Virus record (IMG/VR): IMGVR_UViG_3300024269_000017
Reading direction: 5' to 3' (one strand)
DNA: 64,000 nucleotides
DNA from: a virus
Lineage: Duplodnaviria > Heunggongvirae > Uroviricota > Caudoviricetes
Shown: in pieces, positions 23,405 to 37,301 of the stretch
How the letters are laid out: every line of letters begins with the position of its first letter
Numbering within the stretch: the stretch's first letter is position 1
Translations under genes and position numbers: made by a program
Notes under the pieces: generated by a model
What the model was told of the DNA's origin: nothing
Databases searched by the model: none
What the model saw: only the letters and a program-made list of their open reading frames with translations

Positions 23405-23481
23405 GGCGCCATCTTCTAATGGCTTAGGAAACCGGCCTCTCACGCCGGTAATCGCGGGTTCGAGTCCCCGTGGCGTCACCA
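23405..23481 (+). tRNA. tRNA-Glu (CTC), T-stem imperfect
   Basis: Acceptor GGCGCCA/TGGCGTC (G-U at 2-71), anticodon arm CCGGC-CTCTCAC-GCCGG, T-loop TTCGAGT, A-CCA. Confidence 0.45.
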
Positions 23482-23487
23482 TTATAT

Positions 23488-23561
23488 GGGGATAGGTCTC
23501 TGGGAGCTAAGCGGAGAGCAAGGGCCGCCCAAGATTGGTTCGATTCCAATTGTCTCCACCA
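23488..23561 (+). ncRNA. tRNA-like element lacking an anticodon arm (acceptor + hairpins + T-arm + ACCA)
   Basis: GGGGATA...TGTCTCC-A-CCA, T-arm ATTGG-TTCGATT-CCAAT. No 5-bp/7-nt anticodon stem-loop can be drawn. Confidence 0.35.
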
Positions 23562-23870
23562 AGGCATGGTTGTGAAGCCCAACTGAGGTTTGGTTATCCC
23601 TCGGATTTAGAAACTTGTGAAGCCTAAGTCCCAATAAACTACGATTGCCTGACCCGGGGTCCAGCGTAGCAAGAAATAATGGGTGCGGAAAATAGGGAGC
23701 TGACCTTGCTCGAGTAGTTACCTGCTAAGAAAGTAACTAACTAACTCGGTCCGTTGATGGTTCTAGTAAATCATCCGCCGCTGACGTGTGAGTCATCAGC
23801 CAACGTGGAATACCACTGCCCCAAGTCCAACCACGACAAAAAAGGACTTGCTGGTTAAAAATCCTTTCAT

Positions 23871-23920
23871 TTGAAAAATATCAAAAAATTTGATATAATA
23901 ATAATGTAAGGTTGACAAGC
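23871..23920 (+). promoter_or_regulatory. phage promoter family member preceding about 520 nt of ORF-free leader and a split tRNA
   Basis: ttgaaa at 23871-23876, tataat at 23894-23899. Confidence 0.55.
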
Positions 23921-24440
23921 AGCAAAGACTGCTACCGACCGCGGAAGCGGTCAATATGGCGCAATAGTCTAAGAGTTAGGACGCTCCCTTCTCAGGGGAG
24001 AGATGGCAAATGCAAATGTTCCTTGCGTCACCAGCCGAGCTGACTTCGCTCGTTAAACCAGTTGGGAAGAAACTGCCCGAAAGATATTAGTACCTTCACT
24101 GCTCGCCGTAAGATAGACTGAAACACCTGTCTGTGCAGACAGAGCAGAAGGGTGCGAGACCCCTAGGGAACAGGAAGCCTAATATTTCAAGTTACTCCCG
24201 TCTGCTCGCCCACATCACAGGGGATTTAACAGAGCAGGAAGAGGAACGGGCTGTGATGGGCCTCTAGTACTCGTGTCGGGTAGGTGATACCCCGACGTAA
24301 ATTTTAAGAGAACCGCCGAAGGACGGTGGGCAAGAGGTTGCAAACTCAAGCTCAGAAATTCTAACGTATATGTGGAAGCATTCCGCTCGCAAGGTGGAAT
24401 CGCGTATACGGAGTTGAGGCTCTCTAAAAGCCAATCTTAT

Positions 24441-24984
24441 GCCCCGTTAGCTCAGTCGGTAGAGCATGCGGCTGTTTACCTGACCTCACTTACTCTTTAT
24501 GAAAATAAACATGAATAGTAAACAGTTAGGAAACATTACTGAACTTGAAACGATGTTGGCATTTCTTAAACTTGGTTATAATGTTCTTACTCCATATGGA
24601 GATTGTGAGCGTTATGACTTCGTGGTAGATATTGGCAATAAGTTTATAAGAGTTCAAAGTAAAACATCTCACTCAACAGATGATGGAGCATCATTCTCAT
24701 TTAGTGGTAGAAGTTGTAATCGCAAAGATGGGAAAATTGTACACCATCAATACACAGCGGATGAAATTGATTACTTCGCAACAACTTTTAATGGAACGAC
24801 CTATTTGGTTCCAGTAGAAGAGTGCGGAGCGGATAAAAGACTCCGTATTCTTCCAGCCAAAAACGGTCAAACCCGAGGAATTACTTGGGCGAAAGATTAT
24901 GAATTGGAGGAAGTAGTAAAGAGTTGGTGAGCTGATGTGTAAGCAACCGCAGTGTCGTAGGTTCGAGTCCTACACGGGGCGCCA
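24441..24984 (+). tRNA. tRNA (Asn-GTT or Asp-GTC) interrupted in the anticodon loop by about 473-nt ORF-containing insertion
   Basis: 5' half GCCCCGT-TA-GCTC-AGTCGGTA-GAGC-A-TGCGG. 3' half CCGCA-GTGTC-GTAGG-TTCGAGT-CCTAC-ACGGGGC-G-CCA. The halves are perfectly complementary. Confidence 0.6.
24499..24930 (+). CDS. insertion-encoded PD-(D/E)xK (Hjc / I-Ssp6803I / EndA-fold-like) protein
   Basis: 143 aa. YDFVVDIGNKFIRVQSK has the D...(E/Q)xK core. Paralog of 34579..35022. Confidence 0.55.
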   Translation: MKINMNSKQLGNITELETMLAFLKLGYNVLTPYGDCERYDFVVDIGNKFIRVQSKTSHSTDDGASFSFSGRSCNRKDGKIVHHQYTADEIDYFATTFNGTTYLVPVEECGADKRLRILPAKNGQTRGITWAKDYELEEVVKSW

Positions 24985-25178
24985 GCACCTCAATGGCCCA
25001 TGTTGCCTCGGGTCAGAGAGGCGAAGTATTCAAACCGCTAACATGGATTCTGGCGTGCTAAACTACCACCGGCGCTCTAATTGCAATCCTCCGTACCCAA
25101 TACGATACTGTACAGAGAGCGATATGTGGCTTAGTGGAAAGCGGTATATAAGAAAGCAAAGTAAGCACTCCCGCATTT

Positions 25179-25253
25179 GGGGCGTTAGTCAAGCGGCCAA
25201 GACGTGGCCCTTTCAAGGCCAAGTCACGGGTTCGACTCCCGTACGCCCTACCA
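25179..25253 (+). tRNA. tRNA-Glu (TTC)
   Basis: Anticodon arm TGGCC-CTTTCAA-GGCCA, T-arm ACGGG-TTCGACT-CCCGT, A-CCA. Confidence 0.7.
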
Positions 25254-25335
25254 ACTAAGGCAGACACAGCGAACTTACATTTACTTAAACATCTGATTTG
25301 GGATCTGATAAGTTTTTGAAATATCTGCCTTGCAA

Positions 25336-25410
25336 CGCTGAGTAGTTCAGTGGTAGAACACTCGCCTCATAAGCGAGCAGTCGGTGGTTCAAATCCACCC
25401 TCAGCGACCA
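25336..25410 (+). tRNA. tRNA-Met/Ile2/fMet (CAT)
   Basis: CGCTGAG/CTCAGCG acceptor, anticodon loop CTCATAA, T-arm GGTGG-TTCAAAT-CCACC. Confidence 0.75.
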
Positions 25411-35397: not shown

Positions 35398-35402
35398 TAT
35401 GC

Positions 35403-35436
35403 AACGCCTGTATTTGAATGCAGGCGTTGACTTTTA
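35403..35436 (+). terminator. terminator hairpin AACGCCTG-tatttgaatg-CAGGCGTT
   Basis: 8-bp stem after tRNA-Ser. Confidence 0.5.
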
Positions 35437-35460
35437 TAAAAAATTTTGCTATAATAATTA
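35427..35460 (+). promoter_or_regulatory. sigma70 promoter TTGACT-N17-TATAAT (phage-family variant)
   Basis: ttgacttttataaaaaattttgctataat. Confidence 0.55.
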
Positions 35461-35487
35461 TAGGAAAATTGAAAGGGAGGCTGTTAT

Positions 35488-35769
35488 ATGGAACAGAATA
35501 CCGTTATTCATGATAGAGCTTATACCCGTAGAATGAACTGGCGTAAAGCAATTCGTAAGCGTAAGATTGTGCGTCAATATGGTTATGACTTCTATGACAA
35601 CCTTCACCAATATTCTAAAAACAAAATTCATTGTTCCTGCCCGATGTGTAAAGGCAATGCTGATTGGGGTCTTTATACTAATTCCGAAGGGCGTTTAAAA
35701 GTTTCTGATCGTCGTAAAATTAGAGCAATGAATGAACAGTTCAGCGAAATTGAAGCTGAAGCTGAATAA
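35488..35769 (+). CDS. hypothetical basic protein with CxxC pair
   Basis: 93 aa with RBS gggagg. Confidence 0.5.
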   Translation: MEQNTVIHDRAYTRRMNWRKAIRKRKIVRQYGYDFYDNLHQYSKNKIHCSCPMCKGNADWGLYTNSEGRLKVSDRRKIRAMNEQFSEIEAEAE

Positions 35770-35796
35770 ACAATAGAGAAAAAGGAGAATCGCTTA

Positions 35797-36687
35797 ATGA
35801 ATGCTAAATTTAATTTACCTGATTTTATTGCAGGTCGAGGTGTATACACTGCTCTCATTGAGTTAAAAGAACAGGCTCCTGATTTTTGGCGTCCCAATAC
35901 AGAAATTGCATGTGTATATGGTAATTTTCCAAGTTGTATTTGGAATGGTGGCGGCCTTAATGTGTCTGGATCTTGGAACCGTAGAGACATTACAGCTTTA
36001 ATTGAGTTTTATAATTATACCTTGCGTATTCCGTTGCGTTTTACATTCACCAATCCTTTGATTGATGAGCGTCATTTGCATGATTGTTATGCAAATATGA
36101 TCGCAGAATGTGGTCACAATGGAATGAATGAAATCTTAACCTCTTCCACCATTTTGGAAAAGTATCTTCGTGAAAAGTATCCTAATTATAAGTATTGTCG
36201 TAGTATTATTGGTGCGCGCGACTCTGCTATTGATCTTTCTGATAAGTATTATTTAACTGTATGCCAGCGTCGTATGAATAACAATTGGGACTTTTTGGAA
36301 ACTATTCCTGAAGAACATCGTCATAAAGTTGAATTCCTGTGCACCGATCCTTGTCCTGACAATTGTCCACGGTTATATACTCATTATCGTGATTTTGCAC
36401 GTGCTCAAATTGAATATCTACCCGGCACTCCAGAATGTGCTTGCTCTATGAATGAAGTTAAAGGTACTTTTTCTCATAAATATCTACACAGTCTTGAAAC
36501 TTATATTTCTCGTGATAAGATTGATGCAGAATATTTGCCTCGCGGATTTAATCAGTTCAAAATTTCTGGACGTGGATCTCCTATGGGCGGTATTATGGGT
36601 ACTTTGAATTATATGGTTAATCCCGAATATCGTGATGATGCATTAAGTATTTTTGTAAGTTCTGCTTATGGTAGCGAACCGGTATAA
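35797..36687 (+). CDS. hypothetical Cys-rich protein (296 aa)
   Basis: ORF with RBS aaaaaggag. Confidence 0.55.
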   Translation: MNAKFNLPDFIAGRGVYTALIELKEQAPDFWRPNTEIACVYGNFPSCIWNGGGLNVSGSWNRRDITALIEFYNYTLRIPLRFTFTNPLIDERHLHDCYANMIAECGHNGMNEILTSSTILEKYLREKYPNYKYCRSIIGARDSAIDLSDKYYLTVCQRRMNNNWDFLETIPEEHRHKVEFLCTDPCPDNCPRLYTHYRDFARAQIEYLPGTPECACSMNEVKGTFSHKYLHSLETYISRDKIDAEYLPRGFNQFKISGRGSPMGGIMGTLNYMVNPEYRDDALSIFVSSAYGSEPV

Positions 36688-36688
36688 T

Positions 36689-36740
36689 TTGACTTTTGAA
36701 AAAATTTTTGTTATAATATATATGTAAGGTTGAGAGACCT
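36689..36740 (+). promoter_or_regulatory. phage promoter family member preceding a 490-nt ORF-free leader, tRNA-Val and metK
   Basis: ttgact at 36689-36694, tataat at 36712-36717, atatatgtaaggttgagagac. Confidence 0.6.
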
Positions 36741-37225
36741 GCATCCCCTTCATTTGATTGTTTAGCCATTTCAACTTATAAAGAAATGGCCCTATATCCA
36801 AGAACTGAGGTAAATGACTCAAATCTTGGTCCTTTACGCAATCGGGGCGGTTTATTTTCAGCAATCTATTTAATAGTAATAAAGATGATATTTTACAAAT
36901 GAAATTGATTGTAAATAAAGCACCGGCAATTCGCCTTGCGGAGTCGCCCCTCGCAAGAAAGAACCTCGCGCAAGGCGAGAGCCGGAAGAGTCACGCAGCA
37001 AAGCCTTTATTGGTATTATGATTTTATTCAAGAAATAAAATATTTTACTAAAATATAGGAATTGCTTATCCGCAACTGGATGAAGTTTTAAATGTAGACT
37101 CTTGCATTTGCGACATTTTTAACAGGTTACGGAATAGCAATTCTCCCTTTTCTTTCTCTGTTCTTTCTTCCTTTCCTTTCTGTTGTGCGTTCATAGGGGC
37201 ATCCTACACAGAGGGTGCCCTACGT

Positions 37226-37301
37226 GCGGGGTTAGCTCAGCTGGGAGAGCATCTGCCTTACAAGCAGAGGGTCGGCGGTTCGAGCCCGTCACTCCGCACC
37301 A
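37226..37301 (+). tRNA. tRNA-Val (TAC)
   Basis: GCGGGGT/ACTCCGC acceptor, anticodon arm TCTGC-CTTACAA-GCAGA, T-loop TTCGAGC. Confidence 0.7.

Follow-up and report, generated by a model that had tools for sequence, protein, structure and literature searches.

Large tRNA gene arrays are already known in phages, and the array described here is therefore ordinary in itself. To our knowledge, the interruption of a tRNA by an endonuclease gene without a surrounding self-splicing RNA has not been described in bacteria or their viruses, and two genes of this array are interrupted in that way. The source is a bacteriophage of ~170 kb (168 to 172 kb) from gut or rumen-type metagenomes, and the stretch analyzed, hereafter the window, is the last 64 kb of its genome (64,000 nt), so that other tRNA genes may lie elsewhere. 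The promoter cassette and elements of the array recur in 34 and 83 IMG/VR viral contigs, and the ATPase adjoining the array matches PHROG family 2376 (E=4e-104). Relatives in genome bins were assigned to Bacillota only, and a host from this phylum is likely. We give a probability of roughly 75% to the reading of this region as the tRNA gene array of a large bacteriophage, including the model of expression, decoding, and insert excision proposed below.

ARAGORN placed 33 tRNA genes on the + strand of the window and none on the other strand; 31 lie within 23405-37301. The Rfam tRNA model returned 36 matches above its gathering score. This score was passed by 30 of the 31 genes in that range (44 to 74 bits), and the remaining one, tRNA-Tyr at 27475, reached 44.5 bits in an E-value run. 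When introns were allowed and the sequence was read directly, three interrupted genes were added (Asn-GUU, Leu-UAA, and Thr-UGU), all of them broken in the anticodon loop, and with four further elements, degenerate or tRNA-like, the range counts 38 elements on the + strand (Table 1). A sequence-only reading of this DNA had proposed about 38 tRNA genes in a very large array with bacterial-type identity features, and automated scanning accepted essentially all of them. The G-1 opposite C73 of tRNA-His and the C1-G72 pair of tRNA-Pro were confirmed. The array nevertheless reaches ~5 kb upstream of the proposed start at 23405, beginning near 18549 with three tRNA-like genes (18549-19210), followed by the Met/Ile2 and Thr(CGU) genes at 20407-20560. 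The five Leu genes proposed are actually four (AAG, UAG, CAA, and the interrupted UAA), and two of the three expected CAT tRNAs lie in the range (25336 and 31235), whereas the third, Ile2-like, lies outside it at 20407. Overall, the region from 18.5 to 37.3 kb carries 36 complete tRNA genes on one strand, which serve all 20 amino acids and include an amber suppressor tRNA(CUA). The CCA end is encoded by all 36, and doublets with gaps of 1 to 4 nt are frequent. Inspection, and not isotype-specific models, was used to classify the three CAU tRNAs and to assign the amino acid of the suppressor.

Table 1. Features of the tRNA array and its flanks, by position in the window
Feature	Position	Strand	Evidence
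tRNA-like gene: 48-nt anticodon-loop expansion, long variable arm, ACCA end	18549-18677	+	Rfam tRNA 40.9 bits; ARAGORN with introns
tRNA-like gene, anticodon loop replaced by 54 nt	18681-18799	+	Rfam tRNA 46.9 bits
tRNA-like gene, anticodon arm replaced by 60 nt	19093-19210	+	Rfam tRNA 47.1 bits
tRNA(CAU), putatively Ile2 (lysidine)-like by acceptor and D arm	20407-20483	+	ARAGORN, Rfam
tRNA-Thr(CGU)	20487-20560	+	ARAGORN, Rfam
Promoter cassette (TTGATT, 17-nt spacer, TG-TATAAT)	23213-23241	+	
tRNA-Glu(CUC)	23405-23481	+	ARAGORN, Rfam
tRNA-like element: acceptor/D/T arms and ACCA, without real anticodon arm	23487-23561	+	tRNA-Sec model, 17 bits
Promoter cassette	23871-23899	+	
Degenerate tRNA-Glu(CUC)-like pseudogene, T arm lost	23957-24033	+	
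tRNA-Asn(GUU), whole interrupted gene	24441-24984	+	ARAGORN with introns, sequence reading
tRNA-Asn exon 1, last nt anticodon nt 36	24441-24476	+	
Asn intervening sequence, 468 nt, ribozyme-less; ends form rod helix	24477-24944	+	
I-Ssp6803I-type PD-(D/E)XK endonuclease gene, conserved start 24511	24499-24930	+	PF11645 E=4e-30; PDB 2OST E=1e-15
tRNA-Asn exon 2	24945-24984	+	
Pseudoknotted ncRNA, AAACUACCACCG ... UAUGUGGCUU ... AAGUAA	25025-25180	+	Covariation
tRNA-Glu(UUC)	25179-25253	+	ARAGORN, Rfam
tRNA(CAU), Met type	25336-25410	+	ARAGORN, Rfam
ORF-free stretch	25411-25824	+	
tRNA-Asp(GUC)	25825-25899	+	ARAGORN, Rfam
tRNA-Ser(GCU)	26025-26116	+	ARAGORN, Rfam
tRNA-Ser(GGA)	26120-26212	+	ARAGORN, Rfam
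Promoter cassette	26227-26255	+	
tRNA-Leu(UAA), whole interrupted gene	26343-26648	+	ARAGORN with introns
tRNA-Leu(UAA) exon 1, last nt U34	26343-26377	+	
Group I intron, 218 nt, final nt G	26378-26595	+	RF00028 47.4 bits, E=2e-9
tRNA-Leu(UAA) exon 2	26596-26648	+	
tRNA-Ile(GAU)	26713-26789	+	ARAGORN, Rfam
Conserved RNA motif closed by hairpin, in ORF-free 26790-27144	26912-27040	+	Fold z-score -3.0
tRNA-Asp(GUC), copy 2	27145-27221	+	ARAGORN, Rfam
tRNA-Thr(GGU)	27396-27471	+	ARAGORN, Rfam
tRNA-Tyr(GUA)	27475-27558	+	ARAGORN, Rfam E-value run
tRNA-Leu(AAG)	27699-27781	+	ARAGORN, Rfam
tRNA-Leu(UAG)	27786-27869	+	ARAGORN, Rfam
tRNA-Trp(CCA)	28734-28807	+	ARAGORN, Rfam
tRNA-Gln(CUG)	28811-28885	+	ARAGORN, Rfam
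tRNA-Arg(UCU)	29285-29359	+	ARAGORN, Rfam
tRNA-Cys(GCA)	29361-29436	+	ARAGORN, Rfam
Glycosyltransferase family 8-like gene	29467-30210	+	PF01501, 26.6 bits
Promoter cassette	30207-30235	+	
Amber suppressor tRNA(CUA), long variable arm, G73	30275-30365	+	ARAGORN, Rfam
tRNA-Gly(UCC)	30475-30550	+	ARAGORN, Rfam
tRNA-Gly(GCC)	30641-30714	+	ARAGORN, Rfam
tRNA-Phe(GAA)	30718-30794	+	ARAGORN, Rfam
Promoter cassette	30808-30836	+	
tRNA(CAU); A11:U24 initiator-like, otherwise atypical (sequence reading)	31235-31310	+	ARAGORN, Rfam
tRNA-Arg(ACG)	31314-31389	+	ARAGORN, Rfam
tRNA-Ala(UGC)	31394-31469	+	ARAGORN, Rfam
tRNA-Lys(CUU)	31556-31631	+	ARAGORN, Rfam
tRNA-Lys(UUU)	31955-32030	+	ARAGORN, Rfam
E1/ThiF-like gene, in-frame TAG at 32180-32182	32048-32758	+	
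Promoter cassette	33192-33220	+	
tRNA-Pro(UGG), C1-G72	33382-33458	+	ARAGORN, Rfam
tRNA-Leu(CAA)	33571-33653	+	ARAGORN, Rfam
Y-RNA-like (YrlA-type) element, T-arm and D-arm mimics	33669-33787	+	RF02553 30.6 bits (gathering score 69)
tRNA-His(GUG), G-1 at 34074, discriminator C73	34075-34151	+	ARAGORN, Rfam
tRNA-Gln(UUG)	34166-34239	+	ARAGORN, Rfam
ORF-free stretch	34240-34517	+	
tRNA-Thr(UGU), whole interrupted gene	34518-35068	+	ARAGORN with introns, sequence reading
tRNA-Thr(UGU) exon 1	34518-34553	+	
Thr intervening sequence, 475 nt, ribozyme-less	34554-35028	+	
I-Ssp6803I-type endonuclease gene 2	34579-35022	+	PF11645 E=2e-31
tRNA-Thr(UGU) exon 2	35029-35068	+	
Intrinsic terminator	35099-35129	+	
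tRNA pseudogene without acceptor stem	35163-35227	+	Rfam 45.9 bits, model positions 5-66
tRNA-Ser(UGA)	35307-35397	+	ARAGORN, Rfam
Intrinsic terminator, overlapping next promoter cassette	35402-35439	+	
Promoter cassette, entered directly from preceding terminator	35427-35455	+	
Promoter cassette	36689-36717	+	
tRNA-Val(UAC)	37226-37301	+	ARAGORN, Rfam
Terminator 3' of tRNA-Val(UAC)	37307-37340		

The split tRNAs noticed earlier are real, comprise intron-type interruptions of two different kinds, and supply isotypes thought to be missing, such as Asn. In silico joining of the exons yielded canonical tRNA calls for all three genes, and the joined exons align gap-free with uninterrupted alleles in other phage contigs (for Thr, 90.8% identity over 76 nt with L009:8982-9057). 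At the RNA level, all three would need repair before functioning. The tRNA-Leu(UAA) insert, located at U34/A35, is by its sequence a classical group I intron and should self-splice. The Asn and Thr inserts, both at position 36/37, consist almost wholly of an endonuclease gene, with only ~35 nt of noncoding sequence each, so there is no room for a ribozyme. The ribozyme core is absent from both, and an Rfam search of these ORF-bearing inserts gave no match. The sole PDB relative of their ORFs is 2OST (E=1e-15), and synonymous-site variation across the ORF is flat, save at both ends.

Of 71 homologous ORFs in the loci examined, 59 interrupt a tRNA gene, and the genes concerned represent 10 anticodon types. 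The last three bases of the insert are complementary to the anticodon in 59/59 elements, as in AGC with GUU (Asn) and AUA with UGU (Thr) here. Of 24 distinct elements, 20 form all six pairs of the junction helix, compared with 18% when partners were swapped, and the distal helix averages -14.5 kcal/mol versus -8.9 kcal/mol for swapped partners. A covarying rod helix connects the insert ends in related elements, and folds of mini-constructs gave the same rod.

The homing endonuclease gene could simply reside in nonessential phage tRNA genes and never be spliced out. In 16 loci whose Asn gene is interrupted, no intact copy was found within 6 kb. Self-splicing of the Asn and Thr inserts is unlikely because they hold no ribozyme. 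The junction stagger of 3 nt disagrees with RNase III, which leaves 2-nt overhangs. We favor excision by protein enzymes. The ~470-nt mobile cassettes, with little beyond an I-Ssp6803I-type homing endonuclease gene, fold as RNA with the final three bases paired to the anticodon and both ends joined in a long rod. The cassette would be released by two cuts with a 3-bp stagger, and ligation would then join the exons. Genes for an RNA ligase, RlaP, and three metallophosphoesterases lie 7 to 16 kb downstream of the last tRNA of the array, and a cREC domain gene lies inside it (30869-31183). One related element occurs in the cultured Enterococcus phage EFP01; no homologue of the RNA ligase family of the window was found among Enterococcus phages, and this family therefore cannot be the universal partner of these inserts.

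The phage promoters and mini-cassettes proposed previously find support in the enrichment of TGNTATAAT, which occurs 32 times where 3.4 copies would be expected; the + strand carries 30 of these copies, within a conserved 45-nt cassette. This sigma-70-type promoter cassette divides the array into short units; between 18 and 38 kb, 12 TG-extended cassettes and three strong terminators were found. Host RNA polymerase probably transcribes the tRNA genes, with near-consensus extended -10 cassettes driving units of 1 to 10 tRNAs, often doublets, from which RNase P and 3' trimming would free the tRNAs. Small structured RNAs may be cotranscribed between them, namely, the pseudoknotted RNA, the Y-RNA-like element, and the tRNA-like elements. 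The first, present in 83 IMG/VR viral contigs, is a new RNA supported by covariation, and it occupies an ORF-free stretch (24985-25178) that had been overlooked. Among the stretches that had been suspected of holding structured RNAs, 26790-27144 contains a small hairpin motif, also found in contig L025 with a compensatory change in the closing stem. No assignment was obtained for four ORF-free stretches, among them 25411-25824 (with no Rfam match, relative, or paralogue) and 34240-34517.

The glycosyltransferase and E1-like genes noted among the tRNAs correspond to GT8 and ThiF/E1 genes. The in-frame TAG of the latter falls in the Rossmann motif, inside gapless alignments with solved E1 enzymes, and the gene call of the source contig reads through it. 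None of the 53 predicted genes uses TAG as a stop. The suppressor tRNA(CUA), which appears by inspection to be type II and Ser-like because of its long variable arm and G73, would let the phage read TAG as an amino acid.

Of the codons in the 53 predicted genes, 88.9% are decodable by this tRNA set under strict wobble rules, which leaves CCY, GTY, GCY, ATA, and CGG. U34 tRNAs may reach CCY, GTY, and GCY, and the Ile2-like CAU tRNA may reach ATA. The set has no other gene for Asn or Thr(UGU) than those that excision of the cassettes would restore. With this set, the phage would be able to translate almost every codon it uses, independently of which tRNAs the host supplies.

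As a phage tRNA array, the region is large yet belongs to a familiar type, and it is lifted above the ordinary by two ribozyme-less cassettes that interrupt tRNA genes, to which a pseudoknotted RNA and the apparent decoding of TAG by a type II suppressor add. In the window, ARAGORN called 33 tRNA genes, of which 31 fall inside 23405-37301 and none is on the - strand, and the Rfam tRNA model gave 36 matches above its gathering score, three of them unusually long (18549-19207) and one partial (35163-35227). When introns were allowed in ARAGORN, three further, interrupted genes were found, for tRNA-Asn, tRNA-Leu and tRNA-Thr, and each was verified base by base. 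Their exons, joined in silico, were called as canonical tRNAs and align without gaps with uninterrupted genes of other phage contigs (Thr, 90.8% over 76 nt with L009:8982-9057; Leu, 86.7% with L064). The 36 complete genes, every one with an encoded CCA and many of them in doublets spaced by 1-4 nt, serve all 20 amino acids, and one of them is a CUA suppressor.

The sequence-only reading, which had described a giant array of about 38 genes at 23405-37301, was judged right overall, and the finding is real: the count reaches 38 once four degenerate or tRNA-like elements are added (23487-23561, 23957-24033, 33669-33787 and 35163-35227), and the G-1 opposite C73 of tRNA-His and the C1-G72 pair of tRNA-Pro were both seen. 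Several details needed revision. The true start of the array lies about 5 kb upstream of 23405, four Leu genes were counted instead of five, and tRNA-Asn, supposed to be missing, is present as a split gene. Two of the three CAU tRNAs lie inside the range as described, and the third, Ile2-like, sits outside it at 20407. In the tRNA-like element at 23487-23561, directly after tRNA-Glu(CUC), the acceptor, D and T arms are present together with a terminal ACCA, its anticodon arm is only a 3-bp stub, and the G.U pairs of its acceptor stem recall the tRNA-like domain of tmRNA.

Coordinates of the array genes, structured RNAs and neighboring genes discussed in the text
Feature	Position	Strand	Remark
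Three tRNA-like genes	18549-18677, 18681-18799, 19093-19210	+	acceptor, D and T arms normal; 48-60 nt replace the anticodon loop or arm
tRNA-Asn(GUU)	24441-24984	+	468-nt insert (24477-24944)
Pseudoknotted ncRNA, new	25025-25180	+	in stretch 24985-25178, between tRNA genes
tRNA-Leu(UAA)	26343-26648	+	218-nt insert
Amber suppressor tRNA(CUA)	30275-30365	+	
E1/ThiF-like gene	32048-32758	+	
Y-RNA-like element	33669-33787	+	T-arm and D-arm mimics in YrlA order
tRNA-Thr(UGU)	34518-35068	+	475-nt insert (34554-35028)
Protein genes in the array			two PD-(D/E)XK endonucleases, YunG-like, GT8-like glycosyltransferase, cREC domain, E1/ThiF-like
RNA-repair-type gene set	39491-55229		DUF2828/DUF7788 protein (39491-41005), major-vault-protein homologue, RlaP, three metallophosphoesterases, OB-fold RNA ligase, band-7/flotillin
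RNA ligase	47685-49127		

The array is organized by a recurrent promoter. The window contains 32 copies of the motif TGNTATAAT, where 3.4 would be expected; 30 of the 32 are on the + strand, and each is surrounded by a 45-nt cassette consisting of TTGAww, a 17-nt A/T-rich spacer, TGATATAAT and then ATATATGTAAGGTTGAGAGA. This cassette is found about 30 times on the + strand across the whole 64 kb (e.g., at 857, 9610, 13638, 41405 and 58314) and often runs directly into a GGTTGAGAGAGG leader. Within 18-38 kb there are 12 TG-extended cassettes and only three strong intrinsic terminators (35099, 35402 and 37307), so that the array is divided into units that each begin with a promoter and hold one to about ten tRNAs, small protein genes being interspersed. 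Since the cassette is also conserved in distantly related IMG/VR contigs, it represents a lineage-wide phage promoter of the host sigma-70 type.

The tRNA set is almost complete and self-sufficient. Under strict wobble rules, the 36 tRNAs read 88.9% of the codons in 53 predicted genes and leave CCY, GTY, GCY, ATA and CGG unread; CCY, GTY and GCY may be reached by U34 tRNAs, and ATA by the Ile2-like CAU tRNA. None of the 53 genes ends in TAG (TAA, 29; TGA, 24), and the only in-frame TAG found in the window lies at 32180-32182, in the Rossmann motif of the E1-like gene (VIGVGGNGSYIAEFLAR*GCKKLIVIDFD). Alignments with solved E1 enzymes cross this codon gap-free, the UBA5 residue at the position being Cys, and a stored gene call on an identical source contig passes it to give 236 residues. 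With a suppressor tRNA(CUA), no TAG gene ends and a TAG in frame inside a conserved domain, TAG seems to be decoded as an amino acid in this phage. The long variable arm and G73 of the suppressor appear typical of tRNA-Ser and not of tRNA-Gln, and a type II, Ser-like amber suppressor is a hint that TAG may be reassigned here to an amino acid different from the usual Gln.

Codon supply may not be the main role of such an array. Phage tRNAs could instead replace host tRNAs destroyed by anticodon nucleases, with the ligase, RlaP and phosphoesterase mending the cuts and an anticodon-hiding rod, described below, shielding the pre-tRNA until it is needed. We regard defense evasion as the main role as somewhat unlikely. 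It would fit the RNA-repair genes (RNA ligase, RlaP and three metallophosphoesterases) 7-16 kb downstream of the last tRNA, the cREC gene inside the array and the Y-RNA-like element, which suits an RNA-repair setting. In jumbo phages, an association of phage tRNAs with RNA repair has been documented, where Iyer et al. connect tRNAs, RNA ligases, RlaP and TROVE proteins (PMC7824862). However, evasion is compatible with codon supply and does not exclude it, no host nuclease is known for this phage, and the full 20-amino-acid set exceeds what is needed for dodging any single anticodon nuclease. The major-vault-protein homologue of the downstream set, of 823 aa with MVP shoulder and Vault_3 domains, is unusual in a phage.

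The inserts in tRNA-Asn and tRNA-Thr both encode members of PF11645 (E=4e-30 and 2e-31), and the only PDB relative of these endonucleases is 2OST (I-Ssp6803I; E=1e-15). Among the 71 homologous ORFs in the loci compared, 59 lie inside a tRNA gene, with ten host anticodons represented (GUU, UGU, UUU, GAU, UUG, UUA, CAU, AGU, GCU and AAA, the last likely a mis-registration). In every tRNA-embedded case the insert sits between nucleotides 36 and 37 and ends in three bases that are reverse-complementary to the anticodon, in some cases via G.U pairs. The helix extends further through pairing of the insert's three or four initial bases with those at -4 to -7. All six junction pairs are complete in 20 of 24 distinct elements, compared with 18% when partners are swapped, and at least two pair types occur at every position of this junction helix. 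A distal helix is formed between the 5' leader and the last ORF codons (mean of -14.5 kcal/mol with own partners versus -8.9 with swapped ones), and a rod is seen in the minimum-energy folds of mini-constructs for almost all loci. Within this continuous helix, each strand carries one of the two junctions at a distance of 3 bp, which corresponds to a 3-nt 3' overhang.

The Asn and Lys subfamily has an extra conserved internal loop, CUGAC//CUGAUGU, with the look of a kink-turn or box C/D motif; it is absent from other subfamilies and is thus not a catalytic core. Intron-less alleles exist, which fits the expectation for homing. Terminal inverted repeats of a DNA transposon were rejected as an origin of the junction helix, several of its pairs being G.U, and the three expanded tRNA-like genes at 18549-19210 were rejected as an ORF-less form of the insert because, by inspection, they do not obey the anticodon-pairing rule. 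An interrupted tRNA-Asn of the same kind is located at ~105.24-105.78 kb of Enterococcus phage EFP01 (KY549443.1; our loci L022 and L122), where the record has only the hypothetical protein EFP01_109 and no annotated tRNA. In the T5-like Pectobacterium phage My1 (JX195166.1 30085-30486; our locus L123), the same endonuclease family is free-standing, directly upstream of tRNA-Ile with a 7-nt overlap; phage tRNA genes can thus either contain a member of this family or have one as a neighbor. Taken together, the comparisons show that the inserts are mobile endonuclease cassettes whose RNA is under selection for folding back onto the anticodon.

Splicing of the inserts, by whatever route, is probable, and to the full model, in which they constitute a ribozyme-free class of mobile introns spliced by proteins at 36/37, we assign a probability of about 0.4. 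If this model is true, it would be the first protein-spliced, ribozyme-free intron in Bacteria or their viruses. Protein enzymes would excise the insert from the pre-tRNA and the exons would be ligated, by analogy with archaeal introns, although the bulge-helix-bulge is absent. The pre-tRNA would form the rod with the last three intron bases paired with the anticodon, an endonuclease would cut both strands with a 3-nt 3' stagger flanking the mini-helix, and an RNA ligase would rejoin the anticodon loop. A candidate for the cutter is the insert's own PD-(D/E)XK enzyme, which would act on an RNA mimic of its DNA target and would then be homing and splicing enzyme at once; a host double-strand-specific RNase is the alternative candidate, although the overhangs left by RNase III are of 2 nt. 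Bonocora and Shub reportedly found in 2001 that I-Ssp6803I cleaves DNA on both sides of the anticodon triplet with 3' overhangs of 3 nt, and this DNA cut pattern has the geometry of the insert junctions. The candidate ligases are the phage RNA ligase of the downstream gene set or a host enzyme. No homologue of the window's RNA ligase family was found among Enterococcus phages, and the ligase is therefore not supported as an obligatory partner of the inserts.

The main rival to protein splicing is that the inserts are not introns, a homing endonuclease gene having invaded and killed two dispensable tRNA genes. The halves would then look intact only because the invasion is recent and recurrent, and the array would be left with no working Asn and Thr(UGU) genes. 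Phage tRNAs are indeed accessory genes, neither a ribozyme nor a splicing enzyme was found, 12 of the 71 homologous ORFs lie outside tRNA genes, and endonucleases of this and other families stand free in phage tRNA clusters, e.g., in My1; T4 SegB and the T5 endonucleases are further examples. On the contrary, an RNA-level rule that holds for 10 anticodon types and includes RNA-only G.U pairs would not be under selection in a dead gene, and compensatory changes are found at every junction-helix position and along the distal helix. Furthermore, the endonucleases differ by up to 60% in protein, yet both tRNA halves remain cloverleaf-competent, and all 16 loci with an interrupted Asn gene lack a second, intact one within 6 kb. 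The RNA-level covariation argues against such a tolerated disruption, which we consider unlikely.

Much less probable still is self-splicing by a cryptic group I-like or other ribozyme overlapping the endonuclease frame. The known relatives of the endonuclease inside tRNA genes all reside in group I introns (cyanobacterial tRNA-fMet and tRNA-Arg(UCU)), and divergent tRNA introns are known to escape RF00028 (PMC13011429); in addition, a U closes the 5' exon. The available length speaks against this explanation. The inserts measure 463-483 nt with an ORF of 417-444 nt, leaving only ~35 nt of noncoding sequence in each (~21 and ~13 nt), whereas the I-Ssp6803I intron takes 655 nt for a 150-codon ORF with a ribozyme of ~200 nt included (PMC1995217), and bacterial tRNA group I introns with endonuclease genes all exceed 500 bp, the smallest without one being 184 bp (PMC13011429). 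The Asn and Thr inserts lack a ribozyme core (P3-P9, ~180 nt or more), and neither RF00028 nor any other Rfam family was matched in the inserts, even at E<=5 in a 2.3-kb search. They end in ...AAGC and ...GAUA, that is, in C or A and not in the G of group I introns, and moving the junction of the Asn or Thr insert to end on G yields either the wrong tRNA or a noncanonical loop. A codon alignment of 15 sequences shows synonymous sites to be unconstrained through the body of the ORF, with a flat entropy of 0.6-1.1 bits that falls to 0.27 bits only over the last ~12 codons and is low also over the first ~4. Beyond the pairing, the Asn, Thr, Ile, Gln and Met subfamilies have no conserved nucleotides in common. 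A hidden ribozyme core thus appears very unlikely. The ARAGORN call of the Asn insert as a group I intron at 35/36 of a tRNA-Asp was rejected: its exons match tRNA-Asn genes, two normal Asp genes are already in the array, and the same rule sets the junction at 36/37 in nine other anticodon types.

The Synechocystis tRNA-fMet intron of I-Ssp6803I has an endonuclease of the same PF11645 family, an anticodon-loop site and intron-less alleles; unlike this 655-nt intron, which includes a ~200-nt ribozyme (PMC1995217) and lies at 33/34, the window inserts have 468 and 475 nt with ~35 nt noncoding, sit at 36/37, end in C or A instead of G, and have ends that form an anticodon-pairing rod. Archaeal bulge-helix-bulge introns, spliced by EndA and RtcB and in some cases carrying homing endonuclease genes, likewise lack a ribozyme, lie in the anticodon loop with anticodon-intron pairs, and have junctions that flank a short helix on opposite strands. 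In contrast to them, the window inserts have no 3-nt bulges, a central helix of 3 bp in a continuous rod instead of 4 bp, a site at 36/37 and not 37/38, and a bacterial setting (sigma-70-type promoters and bacterial tRNA identity). The 5' junction falls inside a continuous helix and the 3' junction at the edge of a 1x1 or 2x2 internal loop, which does not correspond to a bulge-helix-bulge, and none of the 30 window ORFs scanned with Pfam matched EndA. The intervening sequences of bacterial 23S rRNA are also helix-closed inserts in a stable RNA gene, and a host protein removes them without a ribozyme. However, they are not religated and carry no gene, while a tRNA anticodon loop needs exact rejoining to decode, and RNase III, which cuts them, leaves 2-nt overhangs, compared with the 3-nt stagger of the window inserts.

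The third interrupted gene, tRNA-Leu(UAA), is of a different nature. Its insert, a probable group I intron, aligns with the full RF00028 model at 47.4 bits, 2.6 below the gathering score of 50 (E=2e-9 for a search space of 44 kb). It interrupts the gene between U34 and A35, the 5' exon ending in U and the intron in G (junctions ...GGACUU|UGAC... and ...GUGCG|AAAAUCC). The group I intron of cyanobacterial and plastid tRNA-Leu(UAA) shares the tRNA, the insertion point, the terminal U and G, a similar size and a match over the whole model; the difference is that the window intron belongs to a phage genome, probably with a Bacillota host, and that its self-splicing is predicted. According to a 2014 review, all phage introns then known were in protein-coding genes, despite the many phage tRNA genes (PMC3984707), and a group I intron in a phage tRNA gene is thus already uncommon.

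The ORF-free stretches of the array were suspected to hold structured RNAs, and this was borne out for 26790-27144 and not for 25411-25824 or 34240-34517. At 26912-27040, a hairpin-closed motif (GGACAAGGCUUUGGCAGGUGAA...ACAGACUGGUGGGACGCGAGUG) is shared with another phage contig (L025:4268-4325); its closing stem varies compensatorily between the two phages, and the window copy has an extra hairpin. By comparison, 25411-25824 and 34240-34517, together with 23562-23860 and 24034-24440, gave no Rfam match, relative, paralogue or TAG-dependent ORF, and no paralogy was found among the ORF-free stretches. One Rfam run at gathering scores and three E-value runs on these stretches gave nothing beyond tRNA, a single group I intron and one weak match to YrlA. 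Whole-genome recoding was rejected as an explanation for the lack of ORFs, as reading TAG, TGA or TAA as sense creates no long ORFs there, and fold-energy z-scores were uninformative (-0.2 to -1.9, versus -0.8 to -1.4 for coding controls). The Y-RNA-like element, similar to the tRNA-like module of YrlA Y RNAs, scores 30.6 bits against RF02553 (YrlA), below the gathering score of 69 (E=3e-5 in a 146-nt search), and a sequence of another locus (L057:13494-13594) is 73% identical to it. As regards the Ro60/TROVE partner protein of Y RNAs, the window has a DUF2828/DUF7788 protein at 39491-41005.

The stretch with the pseudoknotted ncRNA had not been among the ORF-free stretches listed in the sequence-only reading. 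The blocks AAACUACCACCG, UAUGUGGCUU and AAGUAA of this RNA have 83 exact-pattern matches in IMG/VR (L039-L120 among our loci). Two helices cross to form the pseudoknot: P1 has all six pairs in 71% of 45 distinct sequences, against 11.6% with swapped partners, and P2 at least six of seven pairs in 63% of 43 distinct sequences, against 6.8%. Extra covarying positions suggest tertiary contacts. The RNA comes in two subtypes, has no Rfam match and was found as a single copy when the window was searched with its covariance model (R1).

The elements of the array can be placed in a viral context through their relatives. Searches by exact protein found, in metagenome data of ENA and JGI, only contigs (168 and 172 kb) with 99.9-100% identity to the window, too similar to yield covariation for the ORF-free stretches. 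Cultured phages are not closely related in DNA sequence, the phage collection sharing just tRNA-sized matches with the window, and the GT8 gene has no relative in IMG/VR. Viral contigs of IMG/VR, 34 and 83 in number and 7-402 kb long, contain relatives of array elements. The 64-kb window showed neither a capsid nor a terminase gene, and the viral assignment therefore rests on these relatives, which point to a large phage, presumably of a Bacillota host. It is scarcely credible that the region is instead a bacterial chromosomal long tRNA array or genomic island: although arrays of up to 43 tRNA genes are known in Bacillota and cyanobacteria (PMC8421152) and relatives of the endonuclease occur in four Bacillota genome bins, these bins are metagenome-assembled, so phage contigs are easily co-binned, whereas viral contigs of 70-400 kb in IMG/VR share the promoter cassette and the elements linked with it, a relative is present in the cultured phage EFP01, a neighboring ATPase matches PHROG family 2376 (E=4e-104), and nearly all genes of the 168-172-kb source contig are on one strand. 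Auxiliary metabolic genes are located at 3904-4737, 20591-22191, 37357-38415 and 56577-58238, the set comprising FolD, a CitMHS-type transporter, chorismate mutase, S-adenosylmethionine synthetase and a formate-tetrahydrofolate ligase that reaches 793 bits against its own Pfam model.

The tRNA clusters of large and jumbo phages resemble the array in their many tRNA genes on one strand in one region, in the interleaved small genes and homing endonucleases, in the RNA ligase, RlaP and phosphoesterase genes alongside, and probably in co-transcribed stable RNAs of unknown role, such as RNAs C and D of T4. Compared with these clusters (T4, T5, XacN1 and huge phages; PMC7824862), the window combines a full 20-amino-acid set and a type II amber suppressor in a genome of ~170 kb, and three of its genes are interrupted. 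Bacterial L-arrays also consist of dozens of tandem tRNA genes that are redundant with the host set (PMC8421152); in contrast, the context here is viral, phage promoters split the array, and endonuclease cassettes and ncRNAs are interleaved. The array is a further example of a near-complete phage decoding set, which bears on host prediction, recoded genomes and escape from tRNA-targeting defenses, and the pseudoknotted ncRNA may represent a new class of functional RNAs associated with tRNA arrays.

Splicing of tRNAs by proteins is seen as an archaeal and eukaryotic trait. In the literature searched, every known bacterial or phage tRNA intron is a self-splicing ribozyme, and nothing like ribozyme-less endonuclease cassettes obeying such a rule has been described for bacteria or phages. 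Standard annotation misses the interrupted genes, so that phage tRNA complements are undercounted, especially for Asn. The insert family is widespread in phage tRNAs, and its EFP01 member, unannotated in a cultured phage, makes the question of splicing directly testable. If the inserts are spliced, the picture of tRNA introns as exclusively self-splicing in these organisms would break, and bacteria would gain an analogue of the archaeal mobile introns.
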